IMG/VR virus record: IMGVR_UViG_3300028048_000127 | Strand: one strand, 5' to 3' | From: an uncultured virus (IMG/VR IMGVR_UViG_3300028048_000127) | Lineage: Duplodnaviria; Heunggongvirae; Uroviricota; Caudoviricetes | DNA: 20,000 nucleotides | Shown here: piece by piece, positions 6,135-20,000 of the stretch | Numbering within the stretch: position 1 is the stretch's first letter | Layout of the letters: every line of letters begins with the position of its first letter | Translations under genes and position numbers: made by a program | The notes under the pieces: generated by a model | The model's input: only the letters and a program-made list of their open reading frames with translations | Databases searched by the model: none | Told to the model about the DNA's origin: nothing

Positions 6135-6198
6135 GTAAAGTTTCCTATTGACTTATATTAAGAAATATATTAAAGTATATACAAAGGAGGATCAAATT

Positions 6199-6997: not shown

Positions 6998-7004
6998 TAT
7001 ATGA

Positions 7005-7540: not shown

Positions 7541-7572
7541 TAAACGGGGATATGATATGCTATAATGTGGAT

Positions 7573-7845
7573 ATGAGTAAATATACCGGACTACCAACAA
7601 TTAGATATATTGCCTACAAGGATGAATTTCAGTTGAAAGACGACAAGGAAAATATAAGGATTCCAAACAAACTTTTTTTAACGACATTAGAGAATAAAGG
7701 ATGGCCCCCTTATTATCACGTCCAGGCAACAACTTTAAAATATTTTTGTGATACGTATGTCGTCACGAAAACTTTAGCAAAAAGACTCAAGATGGCGCAT
7801 CGGAAAGAAAATACGCGCATAATTATACTTGCGAAAAGAAAATAA
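7573..7845 (+). CDS. Hypothetical basic protein, probably leaderless (start revised to ATG 7573)
   Basis: TTGTAA(7538)-17-TATAAT(7561, TG-extended)-6 nt-ATG; no SD. Confidence 0.7.
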   Translation: MSKYTGLPTIRYIAYKDEFQLKDDKENIRIPNKLFLTTLENKGWPPYYHVQATTLKYFCDTYVVTKTLAKRLKMAHRKENTRIIILAKRK

Positions 7846-7877
7846 AGATAATAAAATGTGTGTGAGGTAAAAGACCG

Positions 7878-8234
7878 ATGAGTTGGCTAGATCAGCGTTC
7901 AAATACAGTAGAAGATATGAGTGCCTTGAACAGGCACAATTTTGAACTTTATGTATCGGTCGGAACCGACATCGATAAACTTCCAATTATTTTCAGAAAA
8001 AAGAAAACTGATTTAGATATATGGTGCAGAAAAGAGTACGGCTTTGGCTTTGAGGATACTTATGCTTGGTTACTTAATGTAGCAGCTGGACAATATGCTG
8101 ACGTGATTGCAGCGTTTGCTGCCGAAGGTCTCAAAACGGCTATGTCCACGATGAATGAGGTCCTGCTTAAAACAAAGACCAACAATACTATGAAAGTGCA
8201 AATTGTATCGGATATGGATGAAAACGATGATTAA
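7878..8234 (+). CDS. Putative terminase small subunit-like protein
   Basis: HTH-like TDLDIWCRKEYGFGF, AAEGLKTA, C-terminal KVQIVSD strand; position upstream of portal; SD GAGG. Confidence 0.5.
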   Translation: MSWLDQRSNTVEDMSALNRHNFELYVSVGTDIDKLPIIFRKKKTDLDIWCRKEYGFGFEDTYAWLLNVAAGQYADVIAAFAAEGLKTAMSTMNEVLLKTKTNNTMKVQIVSDMDENDD

Positions 8235-8859
8235 TGAAACGAATCTTGAAGGAATAAAACGAGTAAAACAGTACGCGACTATCGAGAAAATGTTAGTCAA
8301 GACTAACTCATCGCGCTTTATTGTTTCTTTGCGTGACGAACCGCTTCTGGCCAGTGATGTTTTAGATCCGAAACGTAGAGATGAGATTCGTTGTACCACG
8401 GGCAGCTATTTTATCAAATATTCGCCAAGTGGAGACAAATTTTTTAATCCCAAATATCCTTATACAATTAAGACTTCCGATATGTTGGGGTGGAATCTTT
8501 GCGTATCTGGACCACAGCATTTAGCGAAAATCAAAATGGTTTTCCCCGAAGTTGCTTGGATTTTACGCAACTCAACGTTCGACGACACCTTATTTGCTAT
8601 CGCTAAGTCGTGTCCCGGAGCGATCATTCCGTTCAGTCTCGATGCGGTGCGATACTCTAATATGATCATAGCAAAAATGAATAAAGCAGGAATTGATCCA
8701 ACAGAAAATAAAGTATTTGTCACGTTTAAGTTCGCAGACAAAATTCCACATGTTACTGTGGATGAAAAAGACTTCTGGCCGAATAAAGATGAAGCAAGAG
8801 CAAAATATTTCGCGGTATCTAATAGTTTAGATCATAGTACCGTGCTTGCACACAAGTAA
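8227..8859 (+). CDS. Hypothetical protein (probable start ATG 8227, overlapping the upstream stop)
   Basis: Long ORF between the TerS-like gene and portal; no terminase ATPase motifs. Confidence 0.75.
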   Translation: MINETNLEGIKRVKQYATIEKMLVKTNSSRFIVSLRDEPLLASDVLDPKRRDEIRCTTGSYFIKYSPSGDKFFNPKYPYTIKTSDMLGWNLCVSGPQHLAKIKMVFPEVAWILRNSTFDDTLFAIAKSCPGAIIPFSLDAVRYSNMIIAKMNKAGIDPTENKVFVTFKFADKIPHVTVDEKDFWPNKDEARAKYFAVSNSLDHSTVLAHK

Positions 8860-8888
8860 TATACGTACATAATAAGGAGAAATAGAAT

Positions 8889-10541
8889 ATGAATTGGCGT
8901 GAGTACATGCGTAAGAAGGTATTTGGTATCTTAGGTCTAGTATCGACACAAGAAAATCCAAACACTCCTCGCAAAACATTTGTAAATAACTTTCAGAACA
9001 TTGAGAACCTTAAGCTCAGAGAATACAACATCTGGTATGCTGGAGATTCCGATGAGCTTTTGAATTTCTATACCGAAGCGAACCAAATCGAATATAACTA
9101 TGAGCCTTATTACGATCGTAACAAAACGTCCTACTTCTGGGCGATAAGTTCTACCGAGAACGACATCAAGCGTACTCACTCGGGTCAGCCAAGAAACATA
9201 GTGGATACACTTGTGAACATTGTCGGCTATCCGAAGATAAAAGTGTCTGATTCTGATACCGAAAAACTTCAAGCCGTGCTTGCGCGTATATTAAAAGAGA
9301 ACAGATTTAAGAAGATGTTTCTACAGGAGCAACTCCCACTTACCCTCGTAGAGGGTTGGGGCGGTTATAAGATTAACTGGGACAAATCTATATCCGATTA
9401 TCCTATAATCGTATATTATCGCGCCGATGCGGTAGATTTCATTTTAAGATCGAATCGGGTCGTTGCGATGGTGTTCAGAGATTACTATTACGGCGACGAT
9501 GATAAACGATATGTCCTAATCGAAACGAGACGTACCGCGTTGGACACTGACGGCAGTAGATGTCTAATTATCGAAAAGGAATTATTCGCTTGGGGCGCAG
9601 ACGATTCCATGATGCCTGTCCCTCTAAAGGATTTAAAACAACTAAAAGATGTTGAACCAGTTATTAAAGTTTCTAATTACTCAGGGCTCCTAGCAGTTCC
9701 TTGTGTTATATACGAAGACAACGAAACCGATAATTGCGGTAGATCTATCTTTACCGGCAAAATCGATTTATTTGATGATCTAGACCAATGCTTGTCGCAA
9801 TCATCCAATACGGTTCGAAGAAGTACGACCCGCGAATACTTCAACTCTCAATATCTAGAACGTAACGAAGAGACTGGTATGCCAATACAACCAAAAGCAT
9901 ATGATCGTAAATATACGTTATACGCTGGTGCGAGAGATGCGAACGGAGCGGTAAGTGGCGAACCGGTTACAGTTACCCAACCTGCACTAAACTTTGTGCA
10001 ATATGATCAAGAAGCTACACACATCCTTCTTGAATTAATATCCGGAATCATGTCACCAGCTACATTAGGATTAGATTTGGCTAAGAAAGACAACGCTGAT
10101 GCACAAAGAGAAAAAGAGAAGGTTACAATCTTTACTAGAAACACCATCATTGCTGAAGAGATGGACATTCTAGAAAAGCTAGGTGTTGAACTTATGTGTG
10201 CTAATGAACTTATGCACAAAGGTGAGATTACCCACAAAGACTACGATGTTGCTGTAGAATTCAATGAGCTCACCGATGCTTCGATGGAATCCAGGATGGA
10301 AGTTGCACTCACTGCTTATAACGGCGATGTAATGACACCTGAGATGACCGTTGAGTACATGTACCAAGATTCCTTATCTCCTGATGAGAAGAAAAAACTC
10401 GTTGCGTACATGAAAGAACAAAAAGCAAATGCAATGAACGGTGGAATGTCACCAGAGATGATGGCCGCTATGGGCGCATCGATGGGCGGCGACAATGAAT
10501 ATGATCAAGCCGTTGCGGAACAAGCCGCACTAAACGAATAG
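8889..10541 (+). CDS. Phage portal protein (SPP1 gp6 / A118-like)
   Basis: 550 aa; GRSIFTGKIDLFDDLDQCLSQ, GIMSPATLGL and VAVEFNE segments typical of this portal family; precedes a minor capsid gene. Confidence 0.85.
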   Translation: MNWREYMRKKVFGILGLVSTQENPNTPRKTFVNNFQNIENLKLREYNIWYAGDSDELLNFYTEANQIEYNYEPYYDRNKTSYFWAISSTENDIKRTHSGQPRNIVDTLVNIVGYPKIKVSDSDTEKLQAVLARILKENRFKKMFLQEQLPLTLVEGWGGYKINWDKSISDYPIIVYYRADAVDFILRSNRVVAMVFRDYYYGDDDKRYVLIETRRTALDTDGSRCLIIEKELFAWGADDSMMPVPLKDLKQLKDVEPVIKVSNYSGLLAVPCVIYEDNETDNCGRSIFTGKIDLFDDLDQCLSQSSNTVRRSTTREYFNSQYLERNEETGMPIQPKAYDRKYTLYAGARDANGAVSGEPVTVTQPALNFVQYDQEATHILLELISGIMSPATLGLDLAKKDNADAQREKEKVTIFTRNTIIAEEMDILEKLGVELMCANELMHKGEITHKDYDVAVEFNELTDASMESRMEVALTAYNGDVMTPEMTVEYMYQDSLSPDEKKKLVAYMKEQKANAMNGGMSPEMMAAMGASMGGDNEYDQAVAEQAALNE

Positions 10542-10566
10542 GGACTCTTCAATGAGTTCCTTTTTG
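10541..10566 (+). terminator. Intrinsic terminator after portal
   Basis: GGGACTC-TTCAAT-GAGTTCC plus T tract. Confidence 0.75.
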
Positions 10567-10600
10567 TTGCGCTTGGGTGCATATATGCTATAATACGTGT

Positions 10601-11512
10601 ATGGAAAGATTTAGTAAGGACCGCAGTAAGTCCGCTGCGAAACGATTCAGAACGGATATTACCGCGATAGTATATAACGGATTGGTCCATGACGTCCCGA
10701 AACACAAGGTTTACGGACAAATCAAGGCCGAAATCAATTATTTTACGTCGAAAACACCTGGAATGACCTATAGAGAACGCGGATATTTGTGGGCTACATC
10801 CCTAAAAGCGTATTCTCTTTGTGCAAAACAAGCCTATTACGGGCTCAAAAAGGCGAAAAGTGCTCCAACATACCAGGAAAGGCTAGAAAATCGCTCTAAT
10901 GAGGCTTTTAAGGCCATAAAAACGAATTTTATAGGCTCAACAGCCCTGTCAAAAGTCACAAATGACATCATAAATCGCGTTGAATCGCGTTATAAAGTGT
11001 CTGAACTAGATAAAAATGAAGGAAATAGCATCTTTTTCCTATGTGATGTACACGAACCATGTGCAGACGATCATAAAAATTACCAGGGAAGGCTCTATAT
11101 CAAGGAAGATTGGGAACTTTATGTTGATGATCCTGTTGTTGCAGCGAAAATTAACGCTTATTTGCACAATCATCCTATTATGAAGACCCAGACACTGGAA
11201 TGGGTGCTAGGAAAGAAGAGCTCAAACAAGGAAGCATCTCCTTATCTTATTACTAGACCAAACTGTAAGCATCATCTTGTCCCGGTGAGCATCGATGAGG
11301 TGCTGAGTGGATCGGTGAAGAGTTTGTTAAAGGCCAAGAAGCTGATTCACCGTCACGAACCGGAACAGAGCGCTGCGGAACGTCCATACCGTGCTTATAA
11401 GGAACGCTTAGATACGCTACATGAACTATACAAAGTGATGCCAAGCGAAAAACTCGGCAAGGAAATTGCCGAAACGAGCAAGATGGCTAAAAAGTGGGGA
11501 TCAATGCGCTAG
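10601..11512 (+). CDS. Minor capsid / head morphogenesis protein (Phage_min_cap2 / MuF-like), probably leaderless (start revised to ATG 10601)
   Basis: HEPCADDHKNYQGRLY and RPNCKH motifs; directly after portal; TGCTATAAT-6 nt-ATG with no SD. Confidence 0.75.
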   Translation: MERFSKDRSKSAAKRFRTDITAIVYNGLVHDVPKHKVYGQIKAEINYFTSKTPGMTYRERGYLWATSLKAYSLCAKQAYYGLKKAKSAPTYQERLENRSNEAFKAIKTNFIGSTALSKVTNDIINRVESRYKVSELDKNEGNSIFFLCDVHEPCADDHKNYQGRLYIKEDWELYVDDPVVAAKINAYLHNHPIMKTQTLEWVLGKKSSNKEASPYLITRPNCKHHLVPVSIDEVLSGSVKSLLKAKKLIHRHEPEQSAAERPYRAYKERLDTLHELYKVMPSEKLGKEIAETSKMAKKWGSMR

Positions 11513-11532
11513 CCGTGCTTAATCCCTGAAGG

Positions 11533-11775
11533 CTAAGAGTTAGATCTTAGCTTTTTTTCTACCTTAGGTTTGATGTTGAGTGATTCAGGACAACCAAAGA
11601 TGTATTCGTTGTTGGATAATCCGAATTCACGTTTGATGATTGTTGTGCGATCTACTCGATTGAAGACTTTTGGATCCTGAAGAAGATCGAATAGCTTTTG
11701 CTCACATTCTTCTTTAGTAGGTGCTGGCCAAAGATGGATGGTCTTATCTTTACAATATATCGTTGCGTAATACAT
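11533..11775 (-). CDS. Hypothetical protein
   Basis: SD AAGGAG; last gene of cassette 1 operon. Confidence 0.75.
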   Translation of the reverse strand: MYYATIYCKDKTIHLWPAPTKEECEQKLFDLLQDPKVFNRVDRTTIIKREFGLSNNEYIFGCPESLNIKPKVEKKLRSNS

Positions 11776-11788
11776 ATCTGCGTCTCCT

Positions 11789-12133
11789 TTATCTATTTGT
11801 TTGCTTACAGAACAGGATGTATTCCTTCATGTAAGGCTTGCGTAGAGTTTTATCCCACCAGGTGTCCAGGGAAGGGACTTTAATGTTAAGATCAGGAATA
11901 GGCATAATAACTTCTTTTTCAATCACACCATCATGAAAGAAATCGTAGACTTTAAACTCGAAGCGGTTTTTCTCTAAGAGCGGTCTTTTAATGATGTAAA
12001 AAGGATGTCTGCGTCCTAGAACCTGAACATACTTCTTCTTTACCTCACCGTGCTTGCCCGCATAGGAGAATTTGAAATATTCCAGATCTGTACAAAGTCC
12101 TGCTTTAAAATTGGTATAGTTTGCTACGATCAT
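11789..12133 (-). CDS. Hypothetical protein
   Basis: SD AAGGAG. Confidence 0.78.
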   Translation of the reverse strand: MIVANYTNFKAGLCTDLEYFKFSYAGKHGEVKKKYVQVLGRRHPFYIIKRPLLEKNRFEFKVYDFFHDGVIEKEVIMPIPDLNIKVPSLDTWWDKTLRKPYMKEYILFCKQTNR

Positions 12134-12145
12134 TAATTCTCCTTC

Positions 12146-12538
12146 CTAGAATCCATAAAATTCTGTCGCGAAATGGTCAAAGTTTATTTCCTGATTGTCT
12201 AAGAGTAAGCATCCCGATGTTTCACTGATGATGTCTGAGTAAACTAGGTCTTCATCATCCGTTGTTTGCGGAAAGACCGCTACGATGATATATGAGTGCG
12301 GGTCGCTAAGTAACGCTGCGAGGCGTTTCTTGTGGTACGAAGACAACTTAAGATAGTTATCCTTCTTGGCGTTGTGAATCTTTAATTCGCCTTTTGTCCT
12401 GGTATTGAGTCCGTTGCTGGAATAATCGGTCCATCCTTCAATATCATATTCGTAGCGTTTCTTACCGTTCTCTATGATTAAAGTATCTGGCGTATATCCA
12501 ATGCCGTTCTTGCTGATTCCTGATAGATAGAGTCTCAT
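12146..12538 (-). CDS. Hypothetical protein
   Basis: SD GAGGA. Confidence 0.78.
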   Translation of the reverse strand: MRLYLSGISKNGIGYTPDTLIIENGKKRYEYDIEGWTDYSSNGLNTRTKGELKIHNAKKDNYLKLSSYHKKRLAALLSDPHSYIIVAVFPQTTDDEDLVYSDIISETSGCLLLDNQEINFDHFATEFYGF

Positions 12539-12541
12539 GTT

Positions 12542-12715
12542 TTATTCCTCTTCAATATAATCTAGCATCAAATCGCGGGCAATTGAACTATGCTTTTCCG
12601 CGTATGATTCCGCTTCTAAGAATGCTTCATCATATGTTGTCGATTCTAAAGGTACATCTTTGACTCCCATGAGGGAACCGTTTTCGTTTAATTCTGAAAA
12701 TCTCGCGTAAAACAT
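12542..12715 (-). CDS. Small acidic hypothetical protein (57 aa; start revised to ATG 12715)
   Basis: SD AGAGGA in the end of the upstream ORF. Confidence 0.7.
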   Translation of the reverse strand: MFYARFSELNENGSLMGVKDVPLESTTYDEAFLEAESYAEKHSSIARDLMLDYIEEE

Positions 12716-12719
12716 ATGC

Positions 12720-12893
12720 TTATCCTCTATACCAGACAATATACGCCTGAGAACCATCTTTTCCAGTCCACAAATGATAATGTGGAATGTGATGCTTGTT
12801 CATATAGCGGCTCTGTCTTCTTTTGATAGCCTCACAAAAGCGTTTGGCTTCTTGTTCCGTCTTGCAGAAACTGAAATTCAATTGTGATTTCAT
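12720..12893 (-). CDS. Small hypothetical protein (57 aa, not in ORF track): MKSQLNFSFCKTEQEAKRFCEAIKRRQSRYMNKHHIPHYHLWTGKDGSQAYIVWYRG
   Basis: Hand-translated; SD AGGAGG; first gene after the promoter at 12916-12944. Confidence 0.8.
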   Translation of the reverse strand: MKSQLNFSFCKTEQEAKRFCEAIKRRQSRYMNKHHIPHYHLWTGKDGSQAYIVWYRG

Positions 12894-12901
12894 ACAATTC
12901 T

Positions 12902-13011
12902 TCCTCCTGTTATATATAATACACTATATATGCAGTTATTGCAAGTTTGCTGGATCAGGATGCTGATACCGTGCTTGTATAGGTAAGAGAAAACCCAGAT
13001 TGCTCTGGGTT
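12902..13011 (-). promoter_or_regulatory. Cassette spacer 1: terminator, heptamer, promoter, SD
   Basis: Hairpin 12992-13011; heptamer 12969; TTGCAA-17-TATTAT (12944-12916). Confidence 0.8.
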
Positions 13012-13023
13012 GTTGATTTCTTA

Positions 13024-13581
13024 TTAATATAAGAAGCGATGGATTGACAGTTCTTCGTCAGGAGCGTACTCGATATAGAAGTCATCTCTAATTTTGTTAG
13101 GAAGAACGCTAAGATTAAACTCTTCCTTAACAAATTTGACCAACTCTTCATCGGTTTCAAAGTATTCGCTACCAGTTTCTTCGCTATAGAGACAGTACTT
13201 ATCCTTAAAGTATTTGTGTTCCGTATCGGTATTGATGTAAATATCTTCGCCGCATTCTTCAGCAATCACAACGCAGCGAAGCGTTTCGTATCGTTCCGCT
13301 AAGATGCGTTCTAGACCGTCAATCATCGGACTCCAGGCTGATTCAAAGAAGAAACGGAACGAACCGTCTGGCTCTAAAGATGTAGAATCGTAAATAGGGC
13401 CTCTAATCCAATCTGGGTCGTTTAGGATGTCTTCGTATTGATGAACAGCGAACAGTTCATAAGTTCCCCAAGTATTATTCTTGCAGGAATTAACATATGC
13501 TTGTGCGTATCTTTCTTTAAATAATTCTACTTCGTCTTTTCTGCCGAAGACGACAACGGCGTTAGAACACCAATTTGGCAT
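13024..13581 (-). CDS. DUF1281/YubB ferredoxin-like (Api92-like) protein
   Basis: N-terminal MPNWCSN and FESAWSP motifs; SD AAGGAGG. Confidence 0.75.
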   Translation of the reverse strand: MPNWCSNAVVVFGRKDEVELFKERYAQAYVNSCKNNTWGTYELFAVHQYEDILNDPDWIRGPIYDSTSLEPDGSFRFFFESAWSPMIDGLERILAERYETLRCVVIAEECGEDIYINTDTEHKYFKDKYCLYSEETGSEYFETDEELVKFVKEEFNLSVLPNKIRDDFYIEYAPDEELSIHRFLY

Positions 13582-13588
13582 AACATTT

Positions 13589-13737
13589 TCCTCCTTCTAA
13601 CTGAGATAATTATAACATATCGGTAAAGATTGAGCAAGTTTCTGGCTTGCCGTGCTAGATAGGGCGAAGAAAAAACTCAATCGTTGAGTTGATTGAGTTG
13701 ATTGGGTTGATTGGGTTGATTGAGTTGATTAGGTTGT
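13589..13737 (-). promoter_or_regulatory. Cassette spacer 2
   Basis: Terminator with repeated arm; heptamer 13650; TTGCTC-17-TGnTATAAT (13637-13609). Confidence 0.82.
13684..13737. repeat. 9-bp tandem repeat TTGRGTTGA x6
   Basis: TTGAGTTGA x2, TTGGGTTGA x2, TTGAGTTGA, TTAGGTTGT. Confidence 0.95.
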
Positions 13738-13738
13738 T

Positions 13739-14125
13739 TTAGTGTGCTTCTCTTCGGTTCTCGATGATGCTTTGGTCGTCTTCCACAAAGCCCATACAGT
13801 AATCTTCGTAGAGCGTGATATCAAAGTATCGGTCAACTTCGCTCCCATCCAAGCCGTCGTTGTAGCATATCTCGACTTCCGCAATTTGATTTTTGAATTC
13901 CCAGGTCAAAACTGATTCAATGGAATTTGCGATGTCTTTGTCGATAAAACCTTCTTCTAGACCGAAATACTCTTCTATCTCATCAAAGTATGTAATCCAG
14001 TTGTTGGTGTGTGTTTCGTGGCTAGTTTCCACATAAAGATATGTTGCAATTTTGATTAGTAAGTCTTTGTATAAGATATGACTACCATCTTTTAATTCAA
14101 TAGCATCTTTGAAGTCTATTAACAT
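13739..14125 (-). CDS. Very acidic hypothetical protein (128 aa; start revised to ATG 14125)
   Basis: SD GAGGAGG; about 31 D/E versus 9 K/R by hand count. Confidence 0.82.
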   Translation of the reverse strand: MLIDFKDAIELKDGSHILYKDLLIKIATYLYVETSHETHTNNWITYFDEIEEYFGLEEGFIDKDIANSIESVLTWEFKNQIAEVEICYNDGLDGSEVDRYFDITLYEDYCMGFVEDDQSIIENRREAH

Positions 14126-14132
14126 ATTCTTT

Positions 14133-14237
14133 TCCTCCTCTTTGTACTTAAAGTATATCATATCGTATATATTGATGCAAGTTTTACGCCGACAGCACGG
14201 ATATAGCCAGAATAAAAAAAGCTGGAGGTTATCCAGC
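14133..14237 (-). promoter_or_regulatory. Cassette spacer 3
   Basis: Hairpin GCTGGA/TCCAGC 14221-14237; heptamer (rc) 14194; TTGCAT-17-TGnTATACT (14180-14152). Confidence 0.82.
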
Positions 14238-14239
14238 TC

Positions 14240-14581
14240 TTAATAATTTACAAGATTTGCTAACTCTTTTAAGTCCGCTTGATATTGATGTGCATAATCC
14301 ATCAGGTTTATTAGAGTAGTTTTCGGAGGAAGATTTCCTTCTAGATACCTGCTTGCTGCAAACTCGTCAGGATTGAATTCGTTTGCGTATTTTTCTACCT
14401 GTTTATAACAAGGCAAATCGCAATAGAACGAATCGGTTTGGATATAAACGGTCATCGTCTTTCCGTATTTAGGGTTTTTGTAGCGTAGCTCATATAGATT
14501 GTGACTCTTGAGCTTAAACACTTCAAATTGAGTTCCTTCGTTTATATTTTTGATCTGTTGGTTAGTTAATTTGTGTTTCAT
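14240..14581 (-). CDS. Hypothetical protein
   Basis: SD AAGGAG; own promoter and terminator. Confidence 0.8.
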   Translation of the reverse strand: MKHKLTNQQIKNINEGTQFEVFKLKSHNLYELRYKNPKYGKTMTVYIQTDSFYCDLPCYKQVEKYANEFNPDEFAASRYLEGNLPPKTTLINLMDYAHQYQADLKELANLVNY

Positions 14582-14587
14582 AAACTT

Positions 14588-14683
14588 TCTCCTTATATGT
14601 TATTATATCACAACTCTGATCGGCGTCAACGGTTAGCCGTGCTAGGATATACGCCAATAAAAAAAGATCAGGTGAGTACCTGA
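14588..14683 (-). promoter_or_regulatory. Cassette spacer 4
   Basis: Hairpin TCAGGT/ACCTGA 14668-14683; heptamer 14637; TTGACG-16-TGnTATAAT (14629-14602). Confidence 0.82.
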
Positions 14684-14685
14684 CC

Positions 14686-15351
14686 TTAAACTGCTTTATA
14701 AACATTTACTCGTTGGGTATATGTTTTCGATATTTCATAGAAGACCACATCTTCTGGTTTAGTTCCTTTGAAGAATGAAGCAATTTCTTCTTTTATATCT
14801 TTTAAATTGTATTTAGTTGTTAAGTAAGTAAAACCGCAAATATCGTTTTCATCTTTAACTTCGGTATCTTCGTCATGGATTTCTATTTCAGTTCCAGTAG
14901 CGAAGTAAATTGCTTCTAAATAGTCAATTTCTTCAGTAGTTGTACTAACTGGACAATAGACTTTACACCAATCACCTTGACAATAACCTCTAATACATCT
15001 AGTTTCATATTGTTTTCCTTTGATGATTGATAAACAAATAAGGGTGATATCGGTTTCATCTAAGTTATCTAAAGCATCTTTTAATCGATGAAGTTCAGTA
15101 GGTGAATAATTTTTTCCGTTATCTTTTTTTGGAAGATAATCATAGATATAATCCTTAATTTTATTATCATAGAAGACTTCATAATCGTAGGAATTGTAGT
15201 TATTGATGAATTCCTTAATTGACTTTAAATCTTCATCATGGAAGCCTGGATAATCTCGATTTCCTTCTACGATAATGTCTTCGCTAACATTATCTTCATA
15301 GATGCGATAATCGAAGAATTCAGGGTCTAATTGTTTTGCATAAATCTTCAT
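14686..15351 (-). CDS. Acidic hypothetical phage protein (RGYCQGDW motif)
   Basis: SD AAGGAGG; own promoter and terminator. Confidence 0.85.
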   Translation of the reverse strand: MKIYAKQLDPEFFDYRIYEDNVSEDIIVEGNRDYPGFHDEDLKSIKEFINNYNSYDYEVFYDNKIKDYIYDYLPKKDNGKNYSPTELHRLKDALDNLDETDITLICLSIIKGKQYETRCIRGYCQGDWCKVYCPVSTTTEEIDYLEAIYFATGTEIEIHDEDTEVKDENDICGFTYLTTKYNLKDIKEEIASFFKGTKPEDVVFYEISKTYTQRVNVYKAV

Positions 15352-15357
15352 ACACTC

Positions 15358-15492
15358 TTCCTCCTTTATGCAATAACATTATACACTATATGTTATATAA
15401 ATGCAAGTTTGCGAACCGCTGCGGATCGGCACGGTACTGAGCGATGCGGCGGATAAAAAAAAGAACCGACCTGAGGTGAATCGATTCTTTTT
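15358..15492 (-). promoter_or_regulatory. Cassette spacer 5
   Basis: Hairpin about 15455-15492; variant heptamer GGCACGG 15428; TTGCAT-17-TATAAT (15406-15378). Confidence 0.8.
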
Positions 15493-15540
15493 GTGTATGG
15501 GAGGTAAATGAGTGGACTGTGTGTTTCTTTTTCCTAAACC

Positions 15541-15768
15541 TCAGCAATTATCATTCATATATTTTTTAATTTTATCATATCTTTCCTTTTCGACACGATA
15601 AAATCTATTATCGCTAGTTTCTTGTGGATACAGACAAATCTTATCAATAATTTCATCTTTGTCATTTAGGATGAAAAATTCAACATAGTTTATACAAATA
15701 TACGAAGGATGTCTGCAATGTATTTTGTTAAACCATTCAATATCAATCATATAAGATTTTAAATTCAT
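15541..15768 (-). CDS. Hypothetical protein
   Basis: SD GGAAGG; own promoter. Confidence 0.72.
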   Translation of the reverse strand: MNLKSYMIDIEWFNKIHCRHPSYICINYVEFFILNDKDEIIDKICLYPQETSDNRFYRVEKERYDKIKKYMNDNC

Positions 15769-15775
15769 AATATTT

Positions 15776-15913
15776 TCCTTCCTCTTTACGAATATAGTAT
15801 AGCATATATGTTATGCGATGTCAAGTTTCGCATCTAACCGTCGTGATCCAGCTTACCGTGCTTAGCTCCTGATCCAAATAAAAAGAGCAGGAATTTACCT
15901 GCTCCTTTATTTT
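15776..15913 (-). promoter_or_regulatory. Cassette spacer 6
   Basis: Hairpin GAGCAGG/CCTGCTC; heptamer 15856; TTGACA-17-TGnTATACT (15824-15796). Confidence 0.85.
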
Positions 15914-15915
15914 GA

Positions 15916-16653
15916 TTAAAGAATTGTTGATAGGGTTAAGCAATTCGCTCCTTCGTTAATTAAATCGTTGGCTACATTTTCTTCATCATCAATGCTTGGG
16001 ACAACGAAGATTTCTTTTCCGTTCATCAATGCGAAGTTTGCAAGGACTGCACTTCCGCTTCTTTTTAATAAATCCATAAAACAGACTTGATTTGCTAATC
16101 CACTGATAATTCTATTTCTCATAGGGAAGTTATCAGTTTGTGGTAATTCATTAAATGGGTATTCACTAATGATTAAACCTTTTTGTGCGACTTCCTCATA
16201 GAGTTTTTGGTTTTGTTCAGGATAGCAATAATCAATACCGCTTCCTAACACTACGATAGGGCTAATTCCGTTTTTAAGGGCTGTTTTAAGGGCTATTGTG
16301 TTAACTCCTAACGAGATACCTGTAATGATAGTTTTGCTCTTTTGGTTGGCTACAAACTTTTCAGCAAATCTTTTAATGCTTTCTTTCGGTTTGCGACTTC
16401 CTGCTACCGCAACGATATTGTCTTTATTCAATAATTCTTTATTTCCTTTATAGAATAAGACAAAAGGTGGTTTTACGATTTCCTTTAAGCAATTAGGGTA
16501 TTCATCATCTAATAAGGTAATTGCTTCTACATTTTCGGCTTTTGCTAATTCTTCTTCGGTCGGTTCGGTTTTGTTCACAATATCTTGATAGAAACCTCCC
16601 CAATCTCCTTTGTGTTTTATTGCTAATGCAATAAGAATTTGTCTTGCTCTCAT
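15916..16653 (-). CDS. dprA: DNA processing protein DprA/Smf (start revised to ATG 16653)
   Basis: YPNCLKEIVKPPFVLFYKGN, VAVAGSR, VVLGSGID..YP, ISEYP, FPMRNRIISGL, SGS, LINEGA motifs; SD AAGGAGG. Confidence 0.93.
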   Translation of the reverse strand: MRARQILIALAIKHKGDWGGFYQDIVNKTEPTEEELAKAENVEAITLLDDEYPNCLKEIVKPPFVLFYKGNKELLNKDNIVAVAGSRKPKESIKRFAEKFVANQKSKTIITGISLGVNTIALKTALKNGISPIVVLGSGIDYCYPEQNQKLYEEVAQKGLIISEYPFNELPQTDNFPMRNRIISGLANQVCFMDLLKRSGSAVLANFALMNGKEIFVVPSIDDEENVANDLINEGANCLTLSTIL

Positions 16654-16660
16654 AACATTT

Positions 16661-16794
16661 TCCTCCTTTTTGAGCAACAACATTATAACATAACGATTAT
16701 ATGTAGGTCAAGTTTCGCAGACCGCATTTCCTCTAAGCCGTGCTTATAGAATCCGATCGAAAAGAAAAGCACTCTTGCGAGTGCCTTTATTTTT
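16661..16794 (-). promoter_or_regulatory. Cassette spacer 7
   Basis: Hairpin GCACTC-TTGC-GAGTGC; heptamer 16738; TTGACC-18-TGnTATAAT (16711-16682). Confidence 0.82.
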
Positions 16795-16805
16795 ACTTTG
16801 TCTTA

Positions 16806-17147
16806 TTAGATGTTGCTACGGACTTCGAGGTAATAGACATAGTCTTCGGTGACTTCTTCACTTCCTACGAATTCACCTGTTTTTTCACTATATTTTGGTT
16901 CTTCTTTTGTAACGGGCATAGTGAATGTAACATAACTAACTTTTTCGTTTAATTCGGTATAACCTTTTGAGTCGGTGACTTTGCCTTTGAAGTCTTTGTT
17001 CTTTTTAAGGACTTCGGCAATGTCTTTTGCTTCTCCTGTTGCTTGAGCAACTCTAATGTCGCATAACGCGAGTTTTCCTAATTTTTCAAAGAATTTACCA
17101 CCAAATTCTTCGTTGCCGTTAAAGGCATTTACAAACTTAATTCTCAT
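16806..17147 (-). CDS. Hypothetical protein
   Basis: SD AAAGGA; own promoter and terminator. Confidence 0.8.
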   Translation of the reverse strand: MRIKFVNAFNGNEEFGGKFFEKLGKLALCDIRVAQATGEAKDIAEVLKKNKDFKGKVTDSKGYTELNEKVSYVTFTMPVTKEEPKYSEKTGEFVGSEEVTEDYVYYLEVRSNI

Positions 17148-17156
17148 TTACTTTTC

Positions 17157-17318
17157 TTCCTTTCTATCATTATAGATATTGAGGTCGTAGGTGTTTGTTC
17201 CCTATCGACACATATATAATATCATATACAACATAACGAGTCAAGTTTGACCGAAACGCATCGTTTGATCAAGCACGGTAACGAGGCGTAAAGAAAACGG
17301 GTCTTGCCGACCCGCTTT
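17157..17318 (-). promoter_or_regulatory. Cassette spacer 8
   Basis: Hairpin CGGGTC/GACCCG; heptamer (rc) 17272; TTGACT-17-TGnTATTAT (17244-17216); leader hairpin 17184-17209. Confidence 0.82.
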
Positions 17319-17323
17319 GATTA

Positions 17324-17794
17324 TTACCAACTCGCTTCGTAATAACAATCCCAATGTCGTGGATTGTCTTTTAGGAATTTTATTACATGAGTTAGTATAT
17401 CGACAGTATATTTTAAATCATCGAAATACCAATTATCGTATTCCTGTGAGCCGAAGAAAAAGCCTTCGCTTGTTTCTAATAGTTCGCTTGCTTTAGAGTG
17501 GTCTTTTAAGACTTCTTCACATAAAGAATTTAATTTCTCTAAATCTTCTAAACTAATGTAAACAGGTTTGCAGTCATCTTCACCTTCAGCGCAGTTTTCA
17601 ACTATCCAATGGTGAATAGCGTTAGCCTTTCTCCAATAACCGACTTGATATTTTTCGGTTTTGGATAAGAAGTTCCTCTTTTGATGAAATTCTTGAATAT
17701 CCTTTAATTCAGGTGGATAGAAACCTGTAGTGTCCTCACTCGTAGGAAACTTTGATGAATAATGTTCTAAATAAAGATACATATCTAACCCCAT
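17324..17794 (-). CDS. Conserved phage protein (MGLDMYL...YWRKANAIH...GFFFG...YYEASW family)
   Basis: Recognisable motif pattern of a common phage hypothetical family; SD AAGGAGG. Confidence 0.85.
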   Translation of the reverse strand: MGLDMYLYLEHYSSKFPTSEDTTGFYPPELKDIQEFHQKRNFLSKTEKYQVGYWRKANAIHHWIVENCAEGEDDCKPVYISLEDLEKLNSLCEEVLKDHSKASELLETSEGFFFGSQEYDNWYFDDLKYTVDILTHVIKFLKDNPRHWDCYYEASW

Positions 17795-17803
17795 AGTGCA
17801 TCT

Positions 17804-17930
17804 TCCTCCTTTTGTAATAATATAATATCATATACGATATATGAGGTCAAGTTTGATGACCGCTCCGATGCGAGCCGTGCTGTCCTGATGAGGATATAAA
17901 AAAAGAGGGACTTTTCTTTTTCCCTCTTTT
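17804..17930 (-). promoter_or_regulatory. Cassette spacer 9
   Basis: Hairpin AAAAAGAGGGA/TCCCTCTTTTT; heptamer 17875; TTGACC-17-TGnTATTAT (17850-17822). Confidence 0.85.
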
Positions 17931-17938
17931 ATTAATTA

Positions 17939-18361
17939 TTAGTCGTGGCAGTCGATAAATGCGATAACACCTTTTATTTGTTTGGTATTAATCTTCTTTA
18001 ACAAGATGTGGTATTTTTCATCATCACTGGTGTAGATACGACTTCTAGTAGCGATAGCATAGATGATACTTTCATCTAAAGGTTTTGTAATGTCCTTAAT
18101 TTCCGCAATAGCGTAGTTGTTTTTAGACACTCTCTTTTCATCTCTGTTGCAGAAACTACGACTTCCTAATAAGCCTCTTTTCGCTACGATAGGTTCAGCC
18201 CAACGACCTCCGATTTGGAACCAATCACACCAGTATTGATACATAGGGTGTGTTTCTCCACAGCAATAACAGAAGCGTTCACCGAAATCGCTTTCGATAT
18301 AATCTTCGCTGACATTGTCGAGTTCTTCACCCTTCATTAAATATAATGTTGTAAAGTGCAT
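17939..18361 (-). CDS. Conserved phage protein (MHF...WCDWFQIGGRW family)
   Basis: SD AAGGAGG; W.DW..IGGRW motif. Confidence 0.83.
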   Translation of the reverse strand: MHFTTLYLMKGEELDNVSEDYIESDFGERFCYCCGETHPMYQYWCDWFQIGGRWAEPIVAKRGLLGSRSFCNRDEKRVSKNNYAIAEIKDITKPLDESIIYAIATRSRIYTSDDEKYHILLKKINTKQIKGVIAFIDCHD

Positions 18362-18369
18362 TTTCTTTA

Positions 18370-18472
18370 CCTCCTTTGTGTAGATATTATAACATATATG
18401 TTAATAGTTGCAAGTTTGAGTTATGCTATCATATAAATTTTGATTGCCAAGCACGGTAGGATATGCTATATT
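18370..18472. promoter_or_regulatory. Divergent promoters with the heptamer inside the RHH gene promoter
   Basis: Minus strand: TTGCAA-16-TGnTATAAT (18413-18386). Plus strand: TTGCCA (18444-18449)-17-TGcTATATT (18467-18472), with AGCACGG at 18450-18456 as the first 7 bp of the spacer. Confidence 0.8.
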
Positions 18473-18492
18473 AGATTCAGGAGGATTCCAAT

Positions 18493-18672
18493 ATGGCTTC
18501 ACCAAAGAAAATTGAATACATTAACAAATATAATAGGGAATCGTATCGACAAATAATGTTGCACATTAGCAAAAAGAATGAAGCCGATATGATTGAGTTC
18601 TTGGATTCTAAGGACAGTAAGAACGGTTACATCAAAGATCTGATCCGCAGCGATATGAACCGTGCTAAATAA
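18493..18672 (+). CDS. Ribbon-helix-helix (Arc/MetJ/CopG-like) DNA-binding protein, 59 aa, not in ORF track: MASPKKIEYINKYNRESYRQIMLHISKKNEADMIEFLDSKDSKNGYIKDLIRSDMNRAK
   Basis: Hand-translated; SD AGGAGG; beta-strand RQIMLHIS, helix EADMIEFLDS, helix KNGYIKDLIRSDM; own promoter and a bidirectional terminator. Confidence 0.82.
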   Translation: MASPKKIEYINKYNRESYRQIMLHISKKNEADMIEFLDSKDSKNGYIKDLIRSDMNRAK

Positions 18673-18680
18673 CAGCGGAT

Positions 18681-18712
18681 AAAAAAAGAAGCTCATCGCT
18701 GGGCTTCTTTTT
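18681..18712. terminator. Bidirectional terminator
   Basis: AAAAAAAGAAGCTCA-TCGC-TGGGCTTCTTTTT between convergent genes. Confidence 0.85.
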
Positions 18713-18741
18713 GTTTTGCTTAGTGATAAGTTCGAGCTATT

Positions 18742-19017
18742 TTAGCGTTTTCCTTCTATTTCTACTTCTCCAAACTTTAATGGGTGAAAAGGGCAAACTA
18801 GATTATCGTTTAGAATATTTAATTTGATATGTAAAGTTGCAAAACCTACAAAATAAACATAACTTTGAAAGCCACTGTCTTTTGTTTCGATTACTTCTAA
18901 ATCTAAATAATTTGGTAGTTTCTCAATGGCCGCCCAATTCAATTCTCGTCCTGTTTTATCAAACAAAACAAATCTGTTTGAGTGGATATTGAAGTTTTTT
19001 AATTCTTTTAATTTCAT
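18742..19017 (-). CDS. Hypothetical protein
   Basis: SD AGGAGG; own promoter. Confidence 0.8.
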   Translation of the reverse strand: MKLKELKNFNIHSNRFVLFDKTGRELNWAAIEKLPNYLDLEVIETKDSGFQSYVYFVGFATLHIKLNILNDNLVCPFHPLKFGEVEIEGKR

Positions 19018-19024
19018 TATTTCT

Positions 19025-19250
19025 TCCTCCTATTTACAAATATATTATATCATATATATTATTGCAAAGCAAGTTTTCCCAGAGCTAACCGTTCCAGCTT
19101 GCATTAGCACGGTTCGGCGACGATCCGCATCAGGGGTGTACGCTTCGTTCCTGACCAGATCGTTACGAGCTGGGCTGATCTGTTGCCGTGCTATTCTGGA
19201 GCGATCAGGAGTGGATATAAAAAAATCCCTGCATTTCTGCAAGGATATTT
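19025..19250 (-). promoter_or_regulatory. Cassette spacer 11 (long, GC-rich, inverted heptamer pair)
   Basis: Hairpin about 19218-19250; AGCACGG 19106 and CCGTGCT 19186; TTGCTT-17-TGnTATAAT (19072-19044). Confidence 0.8.
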
Positions 19251-19265
19251 AGGTTTTGCAACGAT

Positions 19266-19661
19266 TTATTCAAAGTCGTCAGGTTCTATTTCGTCCGCTA
19301 ATGCTTCTGGGTGTTGCCAATCCACCATTTCAAACAGACAATCAGCAAATTGTTTATTTCCTTCAGCGATACGTAAGAAGTCGCTACGATGATAACCATT
19401 GAGTGCTTGGAACTTGTTGTCTTCGATACCATTAGCCACCATTGCTTTCTCTTCTAATTCGAACGGATTGTCTTCGTTATCAAAGTCGTATTCAGGAATA
19501 TAACATACGCCTTTGCCTGTACGATACGCTTCGTAATCTTTGTAGATGACACCTTGAGTATCGTATTCACCAACGTAGATTATCTTGATGAGACGACCGC
19601 CATTGAAAACGGACACCTTCCAACCAACGTCTTTATGTTCTACTTTAATTTCATTCGCCAT
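19266..19661 (-). CDS. Acidic hypothetical protein (LFEMVDWQHPE motif)
   Basis: Overlaps the upstream small ORF; followed by a terminator. Confidence 0.8.
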   Translation of the reverse strand: MANEIKVEHKDVGWKVSVFNGGRLIKIIYVGEYDTQGVIYKDYEAYRTGKGVCYIPEYDFDNEDNPFELEEKAMVANGIEDNKFQALNGYHRSDFLRIAEGNKQFADCLFEMVDWQHPEALADEIEPDDFE

Positions 19662-19827
19662 ATTCTACATACCTATATTGTGAACAAGTATCACACACTG
19701 TTGATAAGACAAGCACCTTTTGTGAGAAACGACACTTGTTTACAAATACTCTTGCCTTTCTTAAATCGTCAAATTTTTTAACAAAGGTTTGTCCTGTTGC
19801 ATAAACATATAATTGAACTTCACACAT
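19651..19827 (-). CDS. Small Cys-containing protein (58 aa, not in ORF track): MCEVQLYVYATGQTFVKKFDDLRKARVFVNKCRFSQKVLVLSTVCDTCSQYRYVEYGE
   Basis: Hand-translated; SD AGGAGG; CxxC; first gene after promoter 19850-19877. Confidence 0.75.
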   Translation of the reverse strand: MCEVQLYVYATGQTFVKKFDDLRKARVFVNKCRFSQKVLVLSTVCDTCSQYRYVEYGE

Positions 19828-19834
19828 AACCTTT

Positions 19835-19967
19835 TCCTCCTACGCTTACATTATACCATATCGGTAATATAACGCAAGTCCGCTCCAGACCTCCAGCTCA
19901 AGCACGGATCGGCGGACGCTGGATTAACGGGTGTAAAAAAAGAGAGGACTGTTTGTGCCCTCTCTTT
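19835..19967 (-). promoter_or_regulatory. Cassette spacer 12
   Basis: Hairpin AAAGAGAGG/CCTCTCTTT; heptamer (rc) 19901; TTGCGT-16-TGnTATAAT (19877-19850). Confidence 0.82.
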
Positions 19968-20000
19968 CGGTAAATCAATTAGTCTGCCTAACCTAGAGAC

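Follow-up and report, generated by a model that had tools for sequence, protein, structure and literature searches.

One seven-base word, CCGTGCT, is used by a family of uncultured gut phages to mark the border of each small, presumably early gene unit and, in addition, two head genes. Our best explanation, proposed tentatively and at well below even confidence, is that the heptamers are sites for a conserved putative phage DNA-binding factor, kept in transcription-free pockets, where they would act as directional barriers at the unit borders.

The window, that is, the whole stretch of 20,000 nt that was analysed, contains 18 exact copies of CCGTGCT by exact word count, 13 in '+' and 5 in '-' orientation. 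All of them lie within 8840-19907 and none in 1-8839; an earlier note had reported 18 exact copies and none in 1-8800, and our recount agrees with it, coordinates included. The note's estimate was of less than one copy per 20 kb; 200 dinucleotide shuffles gave a mean of 0.90 and a maximum of 5. Against an order-3 Markov background, CCGTGCT headed the enrichment ranking of all 7-mers in the window, with 18 observed and 0.8 expected copies. The wider consensus is about tAA-CCGTGC-T-A-a.

Most of these copies belong to an array of gene cassettes:

11533..20000, minus strand: array of 12 transcription units, consisting of 11 short units and one five-gene operon (11533-12893), and continuing past the window edge

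Strand reading, spacer alignment and a consensus scan bear out the earlier description of 12 minus-strand cassettes, each with its own sigma-A-type promoter, strong SD and intrinsic terminator. The promoters have an AAACTTG(A/C)-type -35 with an extended -10, and the terminators have GC-rich stems followed by 7-9 T. In the consensus scan of the window, 19 terminator-like sites were found, compared to 5.8 in shuffles, and the best promoter-like matches scored 10-11 of 12, with TG. Among the 26 window proteins scanned first, 22 had no PHROG family and 20 no Pfam family. Judged by its architecture, the array is plausibly an early or host-takeover region. A separate, iteron-rich non-coding region is located at 7010-7550 of the window.

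The heptamer had been claimed to occur in every terminator-to-promoter spacer. This is the case for 12 of 12 spacers, 11 with an exact copy and one with a CCGTGCC variant. The sites in the array are:

12048..12054, plus strand: heptamer inside array ORF 11789-12133, antisense to the gene; one of two array copies within an ORF
12969..12975, plus strand: spacer heptamer, 14 nt past the T-run (script) and 20 nt before AAACTTG
13650..13656, plus strand: spacer heptamer, 10 nt past the T-run and 8 nt before AAACTTG
14194..14200, minus strand: spacer heptamer, 10 nt past the T-run
14637..14643, plus strand: spacer heptamer, 12 nt past the T-run and 7 nt before TTGACG
15428..15434, minus strand: variant CCGTGCC, in the sole spacer without an exact copy
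15856..15862, plus strand: spacer heptamer, 13 nt past the T-run
16738..16744, plus strand: spacer heptamer, 15 nt past the T-run
17272..17278, minus strand: spacer heptamer, 11 nt past the T-run
17875..17881, plus strand: spacer heptamer, 16 nt past the T-run
18450..18456, minus strand: heptamer at divergent promoters, adjoining the -35 of gene 18493-18672's plus-strand promoter, TTGCCA-17-TATATT, and 32 nt upstream of the array promoter's -35
18660-18666, plus strand: heptamer in the 3' end of gene 18493-18672, the second of the two array copies within an ORF
19106..19112, minus strand: heptamer on the promoter side of long spacer 19018-19265, which has two
19186..19192, plus strand: terminator-side one of the two in the same spacer
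19901..19907, minus strand: heptamer of the last complete unit's spacer, 27 nt past the T-run

For the 11 spacers scored by script, the heptamer lies 10-27 nt behind the T-run (10-16 nt in nine of them). In the window it precedes the -35 by 3-32 nt. The internal junctions of the five-gene operon contain no heptamer.

The same word recurs in relatives of this phage, which are rumen and gut phages of about 75 kb. It is the top 7-mer in 6 of 12 relatives tested, and ranks second or third behind overlapping words in three more; 57 of 80 related metagenomic loci, with GC contents of 29-54%, carry at least five copies. The heptamer tends to stand close behind terminators: of 520 terminator-like sites followed by a copy within 80 nt, 317 show it at 8-15 nt past the T-run, in either orientation. 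The domains described below contain 1042 terminator-like sites, of which 304 are followed by a heptamer at 5-20 nt; outside the domains this is true of 0 of 584. The distance from heptamer to extended -10, on the other hand, is scattered from 0 to 103 nt. The heptamer is therefore anchored on the terminator T-run, without a fixed distance to the promoter. Array ORFs largely exclude it: they make up 68% of the array span, yet hold only 28 of 326 array heptamers. Anchoring is looser in a GC-rich relative with long spacers, where the first heptamer stands 9-38 nt from the T-run.

This placement bears on whether the word is read by the host RNA polymerase, or a phage-modified one, as an upstream promoter element or terminator extension. 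The spacer heptamer always lies between terminator and promoter; in relative L052 it precedes an extended -10 by a constant 32-34 nt, and the promoters concerned have no TTGACA-type -35; and the complete relative G001 has genes for an ADP-ribosyltransferase and for a weak alpha-CTD-like protein, a pair that recalls Alt/Mod of T4. We nevertheless find this reading very unlikely, given that both orientations occupy the identical place, that promoter distances cover the whole range just given, that the window promoters are near-consensus without the heptamer, and that copies in the portal gene and its downstream neighbour are far from any promoter or terminator. These two genes and their heptamers are:

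8840..8846, plus strand: the domain's first heptamer, within the 3' end of ORF 8203-8859 and 43 nt upstream of the start codon of the portal gene
8889..10541, plus strand: portal gene (phrog_533, E 8.7e-51)
9274-9280, plus strand: portal heptamer, sense, codons A-V-L
10577..11512, plus strand: gene after the portal gene, 'head-morphogenesis/MuF-like' by eye
11389-11395, plus strand: heptamer in the gene after the portal gene, sense
11513..11519, plus strand: convergent-junction heptamer, immediately past the stop codon of 10577-11512

A PHROG/Pfam-type scan of the window proteins gave no family match for gene 10577-11512. Across 44 portal genes, 80 sense heptamers were counted, compared to 4.8 expected from synonymous shuffles, and they occur in three reading frames. 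Codon choice thus writes the heptamer into portal genes, which amounts to selection in coding DNA. The relatives also retain a heptamer 35-70 nt ahead of the portal start, 4-6 sense copies within the gene after it, and 3-8 clustered copies at the convergent junction of that gene with the array.

In the complete relatives, the portal gene, the next one downstream and the sole block of genes on the opposite strand, which is the cassette array, form one heptamer domain of about 6.6-13.3 kb. It contains 76 of the 80 heptamers of four such genomes (12/12, 36/37, 18/19 and 10/12), so that the word, whose genome-wide frequency had been raised as a test, is confined to a single domain in all four. This, together with the 57 loci rich in copies, supports the 'dedicated cis code' that had been proposed. 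The region marked earlier did include the array, but the array alone is too narrow, as the two head genes also belong. The heptamer observation is confirmed, and is broader than first claimed.

The orientation of the heptamer follows its position: it is '+' beside the portal gene and becomes '-' deeper into the array. At 25 of 26 loci with both orientations, the array '-' copies are farther from the portal gene than the '+' copies, and the shift is significant by permutation (p<0.05) in 18 of these 26; at loci L052 and L018 every heptamer is in a single orientation. The term 'orientation-independent' used in the earlier note is thus correct locally, but not family-wide, where position sets orientation. 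Operators for one regulator and DNA-organising or protecting sites, both proposed in the earlier note, are possible readings. Position-dependent orientation and coding copies suit a directional or tracking function more than they do a classical operator.

One function of this kind would be to show the phage's primase-helicase, in a strand-specific way, where to start or load. The heptamer would then be an extended GTG template word, and the domain a zone of replication initiation or termination in which orientation sets the direction of synthesis. CC-GTG-CT centres on GTG, and an NrS-1-type helix-bundle primase domain (PF22763, E 5e-26 to 3e-32) is encoded by all four complete relatives, the window being only 20 kb. 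The template word of the helix-bundle domain in archaeo-eukaryotic-type primases is 5'-GTG-3'. Both pRN1 ORF904 and NrS-1 polymerase are reported to recognise GTG, and a longer site, of 8 nt, has been suggested for origin-specific initiation (PMC8718748). A signal read on one strand would account for positional orientation, for coding copies and for a reader kept across hosts. Primase gene and domain centre are separated by 42-51% of the genome in the four complete relatives, but these genomes are syntenic, so that the antipodal placement counts as one observation. Priming sites would moreover be expected genome-wide, whereas the heptamers are in a single domain; terminator anchoring is left over, save as avoidance of transcription; and the iteron-rich region looks more origin-like. 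We regard this explanation as unlikely.

Slightly less likely still, in our judgement, is a polar signal for an enzyme travelling from a DNA end or a fork. A Chi-like version would serve protection and recombination at virion DNA ends within the domain; in a Ter-like version, opposed groups of barriers would trap or stall forks, for example at a switch from circle-to-circle to rolling-circle replication. The division of the copies into two groups of opposite orientation, separated by a mixed zone, suits such a signal, as do the short, asymmetric and gene-embedded motif, the large terminase of G001, which as a Terminase_3 member resembles those of headful phages, and the recombination set of this genome (a PDDEXK nuclease, a RecU-like protein and DUF669). 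SPO1- and T5-type phages have early cassette arrays within long terminal repeats. Against this, five MAGs with related phage contigs showed no enrichment (26, 122, 35, 22 and 214 heptamers, versus 20, 105, 8, 162 and 300 for controls), which argues that the heptamer is not a host Chi if those MAGs are the hosts, binning being weak evidence of host. The domain is larger where the array is larger (6.6, 9.7 and 13.3 kb, the genomes measuring 76.6-78.0 kb) and does not follow a fixed headful overhang; in two relatives the ends of the contig are found some 1.1 kb ahead of the homologue of window 7878-8234, outside the array; known Ter sites exceed 20 bp; and GC skew tracks gene strand alone.

The array itself contains a candidate reader:

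18493..18672, plus strand: small divergent gene (P0121, 59 aa), with a predicted ribbon-helix-helix (RHH) fold

The structure model of P0121 has a pLDDT of 95, and its top structural matches are nearly all RHH DNA-binding proteins (Z up to 4.7), which suggests an RHH-type protein; the family is present in the arrays of 19 records, including the window. The heptamer could then be the operator of this protein, which would autoregulate and tune the array promoters. A heptamer adjoins the -35 of the gene's own promoter in the window and comes right after the -10 in L058 and L073, with the variant CCGTGCA there in L065, and a symmetric RHH dimer would ignore the orientation of its site. The omega protein of plasmid pSM19035 offers a precedent, as an RHH protein that reads 7-bp heptads, direct or inverted, upstream of several promoters. 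However, G001 has 12 heptamers and no homologue, and the predicted DNA-reading strand is variable (Y9 alone is invariant, Y13 and L50 nearly so) while the heptamer is invariant. RHH proteins usually need at least two adjacent sub-sites, most heptamers being isolated, and the orientation gradient and portal-gene copies are unexplained. We consider the proposal improbable.

Comparison of close strains was informative for the idea, raised in the earlier note, of crossover points for integron-like cassette shuffling, whether site-specific or through preferred micro-homology in spacers. Close strains do differ by whole ORFs or units, and spacers are paralogous within a genome (83-85% identity over about 135 bp in L056/L057). 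The strain joints on the window, however, map mostly to ORF edges (15550/15764 and 19261/19646), to the inside of genes (17723/18174), to an operon without a nearby heptamer (12529/12713), and to a terminator foot (13674), where a replacement begins 18 nt from heptamer 13650..13656. Only one joint coincides with a heptamer, at 19186, where runs X2 and X5 regain homology exactly at its first base; the suggestion that breakpoints fall at the heptamer finds this single place. Every cassette comes with a promoter of its own, a stretch of 7 bp does not suffice for homologous exchange, the portal-gene copies have no cassette to move, and no integrase or recombinase family turned up in scans covering 39 proteins of the window and 70 of the 109 encoded by G001. 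Crossover at the heptamer is not supported, and we hold it to be highly improbable.

We therefore return to barrier sites. The heptamer would be the core of the recognition site of one conserved factor, probably phage-encoded, that needs continued binding to double-stranded DNA. In a heavily transcribed array, such sites would be kept in the sole transcription-free pockets, between a terminator and the next promoter; the portal gene and the next gene lack spacers, so that sites there would be placed in coding sequence through codon choice. We infer that a protein binds the heptamer, that once bound it would block polymerases, and that this block may be polar, the directionality being suggested by the change from '+' by the portal gene to '-' deeper in the array. 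The factor would form a barrier at each unit border, halting read-through RNA polymerase while the U-tract is still at its active site, and insulating units and convergent late genes from their neighbours. The active site of a stalled polymerase is roughly 13-18 bp from a roadblock, a distance matched by the 10-12 nt gap plus a protein footprint. Enrichment, conservation, domain restriction, terminator anchoring, ORF exclusion and coding selection in the portal gene also favour barrier sites. Several points weaken this reading: a lone asymmetric 7-bp word would make an unusually short operator for a protein; the orientation gradient and coding copies are more typical of tracking-enzyme or single-strand signals; the array terminators already look strong, so that a back-up is not obviously needed; portal copies would hinder portal transcription unless the factor were removed late in infection; and there are the looser anchoring in the GC-rich relative and the single orientation in L052 and L018.

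Among known arrays, the closest in layout is the T4-type PeSL (promoter-early stem-loop), in which small orphan genes of a variable region are separated by composite spacers, each combining a terminator of the stem-loop kind with a strong early promoter of host type (Arbiol et al. 2010, PMC2839356; Comeau et al. 2014, PMC4122927). As far as the consulted portions of these papers go, ORF insertion, loss and replacement in or near spacers among close relatives is another likeness. The consulted portion of the first describes an AT-rich region before the -35, and mentions there neither a conserved GC-rich heptamer nor copies in neighbouring structural genes nor an orientation gradient (Arbiol et al. 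2010, PMC2839356). Host type and lineage also differ, with Gram-positive-style promoters, a phrog_533 portal and a genome of about 75 kb here. The SPO1 host-takeover module and T5-type pre-early regions resemble the array in their dense short early operons, set apart and each with its own promoter and terminator; they sit in long terminal repeats, and are not known to share a heptamer. In Tus-Ter and RTP-Ter fork traps, opposed groups of asymmetric sites are likewise found within one limited region, and a bound protein stops forks and RNA polymerase from one side and needs shielding from transcription. Ter sites are few and longer than 20 bp, in contrast to a 7-bp core in 12-36 copies with a mixed zone, and such traps are not known from this phage context. 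The omega heptads of pSM19035 are likewise 7-bp words, read by an RHH protein, and the array, too, has an RHH gene; unlike the mostly single heptamers here, hundreds of bp apart, they must be contiguous in groups of at least two, and one complete relative has no member of the array RHH family, whose reading strand also lacks conservation. Eukaryotic RNA polymerase I terminators (Reb1/TTF-I) differ in that the array terminators are complete intrinsic hairpins and the heptamers lie in both orientations. The likeness is the short set distance behind a T-rich site, 8-15 nt here: Reb1/TTF-I sites stand 10-16 bp behind a T-rich release element, where the bound factor pauses polymerase I.

The window belongs to a phage contig that is about 73 kb long and comes from a metagenome. 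The earlier note had described a row of self-contained units on its minus strand, and the 12 units were borne out by a minus-strand reading of 11400-20000, an alignment of the 12 spacers (the gaps between a terminator and the next promoter) and a consensus scan. The features concerned are the following.

8889-10541, plus strand: portal gene (phrog_533)
10577-11512, plus strand: post-portal gene
11533-20000, minus strand: array of 12 transcription units
11533-12893: five-gene operon of the array
15428-15434: CCGTGCC, variant of the heptamer CCGTGCT in the single spacer lacking an exact copy
15916-16683, minus strand: DprA-like gene (PF02481, E 1.6e-55), a single array cassette and a rare array gene of known family
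17324-17794: gene of a PHROG of unknown function, an exception to the lack of families in the array
18493-18672, plus strand: gene of the 59-residue protein P0121

Each unit is predicted to comprise a -35 box of the AAACTTG(A/C) type with a conserved spacer and an extended -10, followed by a strong ribosome-binding site and an intrinsic terminator. By sequence reading and alignment, the predicted promoter, AAACTTG(A/C)...TG-n-TATAAT, is kept in all 12 spacers, and the seven best promoter-like matches of the minus strand (score 10-11 of 12) all carry the TG. A hairpin with a T-run precedes every array promoter, several of the terminators being two-way, and 19 terminator-like sites were counted in the window, compared with 5.8 in shuffled sequences. 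Of the 17 array proteins scanned, 14 were without a Pfam match at E<=0.01 and 15 could not be placed in a PHROG family.

The coordinates and counts that the earlier note gave for the heptamer were correct: the window holds 18 copies of CCGTGCT (13 on the plus and 5 on the minus strand), all between 8840 and 19907. Dinucleotide shuffles of the window gave a mean of 0.90 copies and a maximum of 5, and when k-mers were counted against an order-3 Markov background, as that note had suggested, CCGTGCT came out as the most enriched 7-mer. The word is found in all 12 spacers of the array (11 exact copies and the one variant) and is absent from the internal gene junctions of the five-gene operon. In the literature library covered, no paper mentioned CCGTGCT or its reverse complement, AGCACGG.

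When the spacers were searched for a further word in common, only promoter and SD words came out; GATC is enriched about 2.8-fold there. By eye, (A/G/T)CGGT was seen 6-17 nt before AAACTTG in 6 of the 12 window spacers; this word is similar to the 3' part of AGCACGGT and might serve as a second, weak sub-site. About eight octamers resembling CAATCAAC lie at 13690-13737, past the stop codon of gene 13739-14161 and ahead of the terminator of this gene. In X3, one of the near-identical strain runs compared with the window (X2-X5), 35 nt of this series are missing, so that its copy number varies.

No DNA nearly identical to the window was found in the phage record collection, where the closest portal identity among deposited phages was 29%, and a single-protein portal query of IMG/VR and species genomes returned no close relative. 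Alignment-based queries retrieved 80 metagenomic loci with portal identities of 33-93%, as well as further IMG/VR loci and loci in five MAGs. The runs with near-identical DNA bear the labels of animal gut metagenomes, bovine and goat among them, and one related contig is labelled as human gut metagenome. At least five copies of the heptamer were present in 57 of the 80 metagenomic loci, over a GC range of 29 to 54%; the most distant portal relatives, for example L069-L071, L075, L078 and L079, are free of it. The consensus drawn from 1029 distinct CCGTGC sites reads approximately tAA-CCGTGC-T(65%)/A(24%)-A-a, and the flanks further out are not conserved.

In the complete relatives, nearly all genes lie on one strand, except for a block of small cassettes situated on the opposite strand, between the portal and next gene on one side and the remaining late genes on the other. 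This block, the portal gene and the post-portal gene form the marked domain, to which the heptamer is largely confined:

G001, domain 9318-15926: 12 of 12 copies
G002, domain 63477-76764: 36 of 37 copies
G003, domain 16601-26292: 18 of 19 copies
G004, domain 5000-18208: 10 of 12 copies

We conclude that the heptamer is a trait of this phage family, and that it marks one domain per genome.

Within the domains, the position of the word is tied to the ends of transcription units. A copy was found 5-20 nt downstream of 304 of the 1042 terminator-like sites inside domains, compared with none of the 584 outside, both denominators including many false sites since the predictor was crude. For 520 terminator-like sites the next 80 nt downstream contained a copy, which lay 8-15 nt after the T-run in 317 cases: 140 of 247 for copies in the terminator sense and 177 of 273 for antisense ones. 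Although called ORFs take up 68% of the span, only 28 of 326 array copies (30 loci) fell within them. Clusters of 3-8 copies occupy the convergent junction in relatives. The distance from the heptamer to the extended -10 ranges from 0 to 103 nt; that the heptamer would be an element read by the polymerase is very unlikely in our estimation. Four known motifs (the Spo0A 0A box, the sigma-54 -24 element, the T4 MotA box and parS) were rejected because their sequences do not match the heptamer.

A different arrangement was noted at 7000-14500 of the related locus L052, which contains 14 units of almost the same layout, each consisting of a terminator, about 11 nt, a heptamer in the sense orientation, 32-34 nt and ATGTTAATAT. 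A CGAAAAA word takes the place of the -35 in these units, and the promoter type differs from that of the window.

The copies in the two late genes are of another kind, in that they lie within coding sequence. Portal-gene heptamers fall at the conserved residues YYRA, FYTRA, PCLII and L-E/N-T-V-L, in all three frames. When 44 portal genes were shuffled synonymously, 80 sense copies were observed for 4.8 expected, and 7 antisense copies for 2.2 expected; the positions are often inherited, so that these are not independent events. The post-portal gene of relatives carries 4-6 sense copies. Judging from the sequences, the heptamer is written into two late genes through codon choice.

We then considered orientation. 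In 27 of 30 loci, the copies in the portal and post-portal genes are on the plus strand, and the array begins with plus copies and turns to minus copies with distance. Within arrays, minus copies lie farther from the portal than plus copies in 25 of the 26 loci having both orientations, the shift being significant in 18 of these 26 (permutation P < 0.05); the loci are related, and part of this pattern may thus be inherited. In the window the shift amounts to 2.0 kb (P = 0.086), and two exceptions, L052 and L018, have minus copies only. Since the switch takes place inside the array, orientation does not simply follow the transcribed strand. We conclude that the orientation of the heptamer depends on its position and is not random.

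A short asymmetric core, copies embedded in coding sequence and a gradient of orientation keep alive two readings in which the word is met by a tracking machine. It could be a start site for a primase: the heptamer has GTG at its centre, and a primase with an NrS-1-type helix-bundle domain (PF22763) was found in each of the four complete relatives. This domain is reported to read 5'-GTG-3' on the template (PMC8718748). We regard such a start site as unlikely. It could also be a signal acting on DNA ends or forks, like Chi, which has in common with it a short asymmetric word in an orientation-dependent arrangement, or like Ter. For a Ter-type trap, two opposed orientation groups are seen and no terminator protein was identified. 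We regard such an end or fork signal as unlikely, too. Known Ter sites are much longer than a heptamer. For a Chi sequence of the host, the five MAGs with related phage contigs contained 26, 122, 35, 22 and 214 copies, compared with 20, 105, 8, 162 and 300 for controls; this absence of enrichment argues against a host Chi, binning being weak evidence of the host. GC skew was discarded as a replication signal, as it follows gene strand only.

Another reading takes the heptamer for an omega-like heptad operator of P0121, which gave a confident model of the ribbon-helix-helix (RHH) type (pLDDT 95). In a full structural scan its best matches were almost all RHH DNA-binding proteins (Z <=4.7, rmsd 1.4-2 Å over 37-42 residues), while Pfam assigned no family to P0121 and neither a PDB sequence-profile search nor Foldseek gave a match. 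Homologues of P0121 exist in 19 records, including the window, and the heptamer overlaps or abuts the promoter of this family in the window, L058 and L073, as does a variant in L065. Against this, the family is missing from G001, a complete relative, and homologues lack conservation in the strand predicted to read DNA, which makes the RHH protein an improbable reader of an invariant word.

Whole-ORF or whole-unit differences were found among close relatives and near-identical strains, the comparisons being those of the window with L001, of L056, L057, L060 and L063, and of the runs X2-X5, all four of which are contigs. The joints were as follows.

15550/15764: exchange of an ORF, X5 having 360 letters of different sequence
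19261/19646: exchange of an ORF, with 316 letters of different sequence
13674/13752: 358 letters of different sequence, with the break at the foot of a terminator and a heptamer 18 nt away
12529/12713: a gene lost within the operon, at a distance from any heptamer
17723/18174: deletion that starts and ends within genes
18694/19186: homology restarts exactly at a heptamer (X5; loose end in X2)

The earlier note had proposed, among other roles, crossover points for integron-like shuffling of cassettes; the alignment of breakpoints does not uphold this, as it places the joints mostly away from the heptamer, and we hold a crossover site to be highly improbable. Integron cassettes (attC) were rejected because every unit has its own promoter, and because there is usually one heptamer per spacer rather than paired inverse-core and core 7-mers. 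The proteins scanned, 39 from the window and 70 of the 109 encoded by G001, included no member of an integrase family. Exchange appears to be of the kind seen in the promoter-early stem-loop (PeSL) cassettes of T4-type phages, occurring between similar regulatory spacers (PMC2839356, PMC4122927), and not site-specific recombination at the heptamer.

Several observations were made on neighbouring regions. At 7010-7550 lies a non-coding, low-GC region of 540 bp with tandem repeats of the GTGTATAGTT type (7083-7124), inverted copies at about 7390-7415, an AT-rich palindrome of 17 nt (7137-7172) and, at about 7280-7345, cores rich in GC; in sequence, the region resembles either an origin or a packaging site. 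Two long contigs of relatives, L056 and L160, stop in a non-coding region before the portal block, about 1.1 kb ahead of the homologue of 7878-8234, a place that would match 7010-7550. These ends may mark physical termini; other contigs end elsewhere. The gene pair 7878-8234 and 8203-8859 (plus strand), directly before the portal gene, is conserved across relatives. For the first of the pair, taken as ORF 7878-8231, the protein atlas gave only a weak lead to HTH_23 (score 0.90), and for ORF 8218-8856 nothing usable.

Further upstream, an RNA ligase (PF09414), a class-I methyltransferase and a VTT-domain membrane protein stand in a row at 1581-3726 (plus strand), and ORF 4273-4641 has a ParB-like 'GRHR' motif by eye, with no Pfam support. 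In G001 (L165-L168), the large terminase is about 22 kb from the portal, an unusual split of the packaging genes; a 493-residue protein with an ADP-ribosyltransferase domain adjoins an ADP-ribosylglycohydrolase, a LAGLIDADG domain interrupts an SNF2-type helicase, and the array gene nearest the portal side encodes an HNH-AP2 endonuclease (this set including, for example, 2675-4156, 1663-2433, 42233-44254 and 15048-15665).

The reading that we favour, tentatively, is that the heptamer may form the core sequence bound by a conserved DNA-binding factor encoded by the phage, which would insulate units from one another or act as a directional barrier at their borders. Such a factor would have to stay bound, and the heptamer would for this reason lie in transcription-free pockets behind terminators and in two late genes facing the array. 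With a spacing of 8-15 nt, a polymerase reading through could be stalled on the U-tract. A more novel proposal, which we consider doubtful, is that the heptamer is a directional signal new for phages, in a marked domain of 7-14 kb along which orientation flips from end to end; its reader would be a conserved phage machine, either a helix-bundle-domain primase-helicase or a polar barrier protein, that starts, stops or traps replication forks and polymerases, and the signal would be kept functional by its shelter from transcription behind every terminator and by being coded into two head genes. The combination of features points to a new way for transcription units to interact with a DNA-reading factor, in a rumen and gut phage family that is widespread, and the heptamer could provide synthetic biology in Gram-positive bacteria with a compact part that insulates or blocks.

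T4-type phages are already known to carry early genes in rows of self-contained cassettes (PMC2839356, PMC4122927). The likeness of the window array to these PeSL cassettes extends to a strong promoter of the host sigma-70/sigma-A type, predicted in each spacer, and to a stem-loop terminator sharing the spacer upstream of the promoter. The array likewise consists of small orphan genes in a variable region, with ORFs replaced between strains, and insertions, deletions or replacements between close relatives end in or beside spacers, some joints being inside genes. The phage of the window differs from T4-type phages, however, in portal family and genome size. In its testable features, the cassette architecture matches PeSL arrays as a member of that class would, in an unrelated phage lineage. 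To our knowledge, the combination of domain restriction, anchoring to terminators, exclusion from early ORFs, copies made by codon choice and a rule of orientation is undescribed for PeSLs, operators, Chi or Ter. What is known is thus the cassette architecture, as in PeSLs; what is new is the added word, with its rules of placement and orientation.
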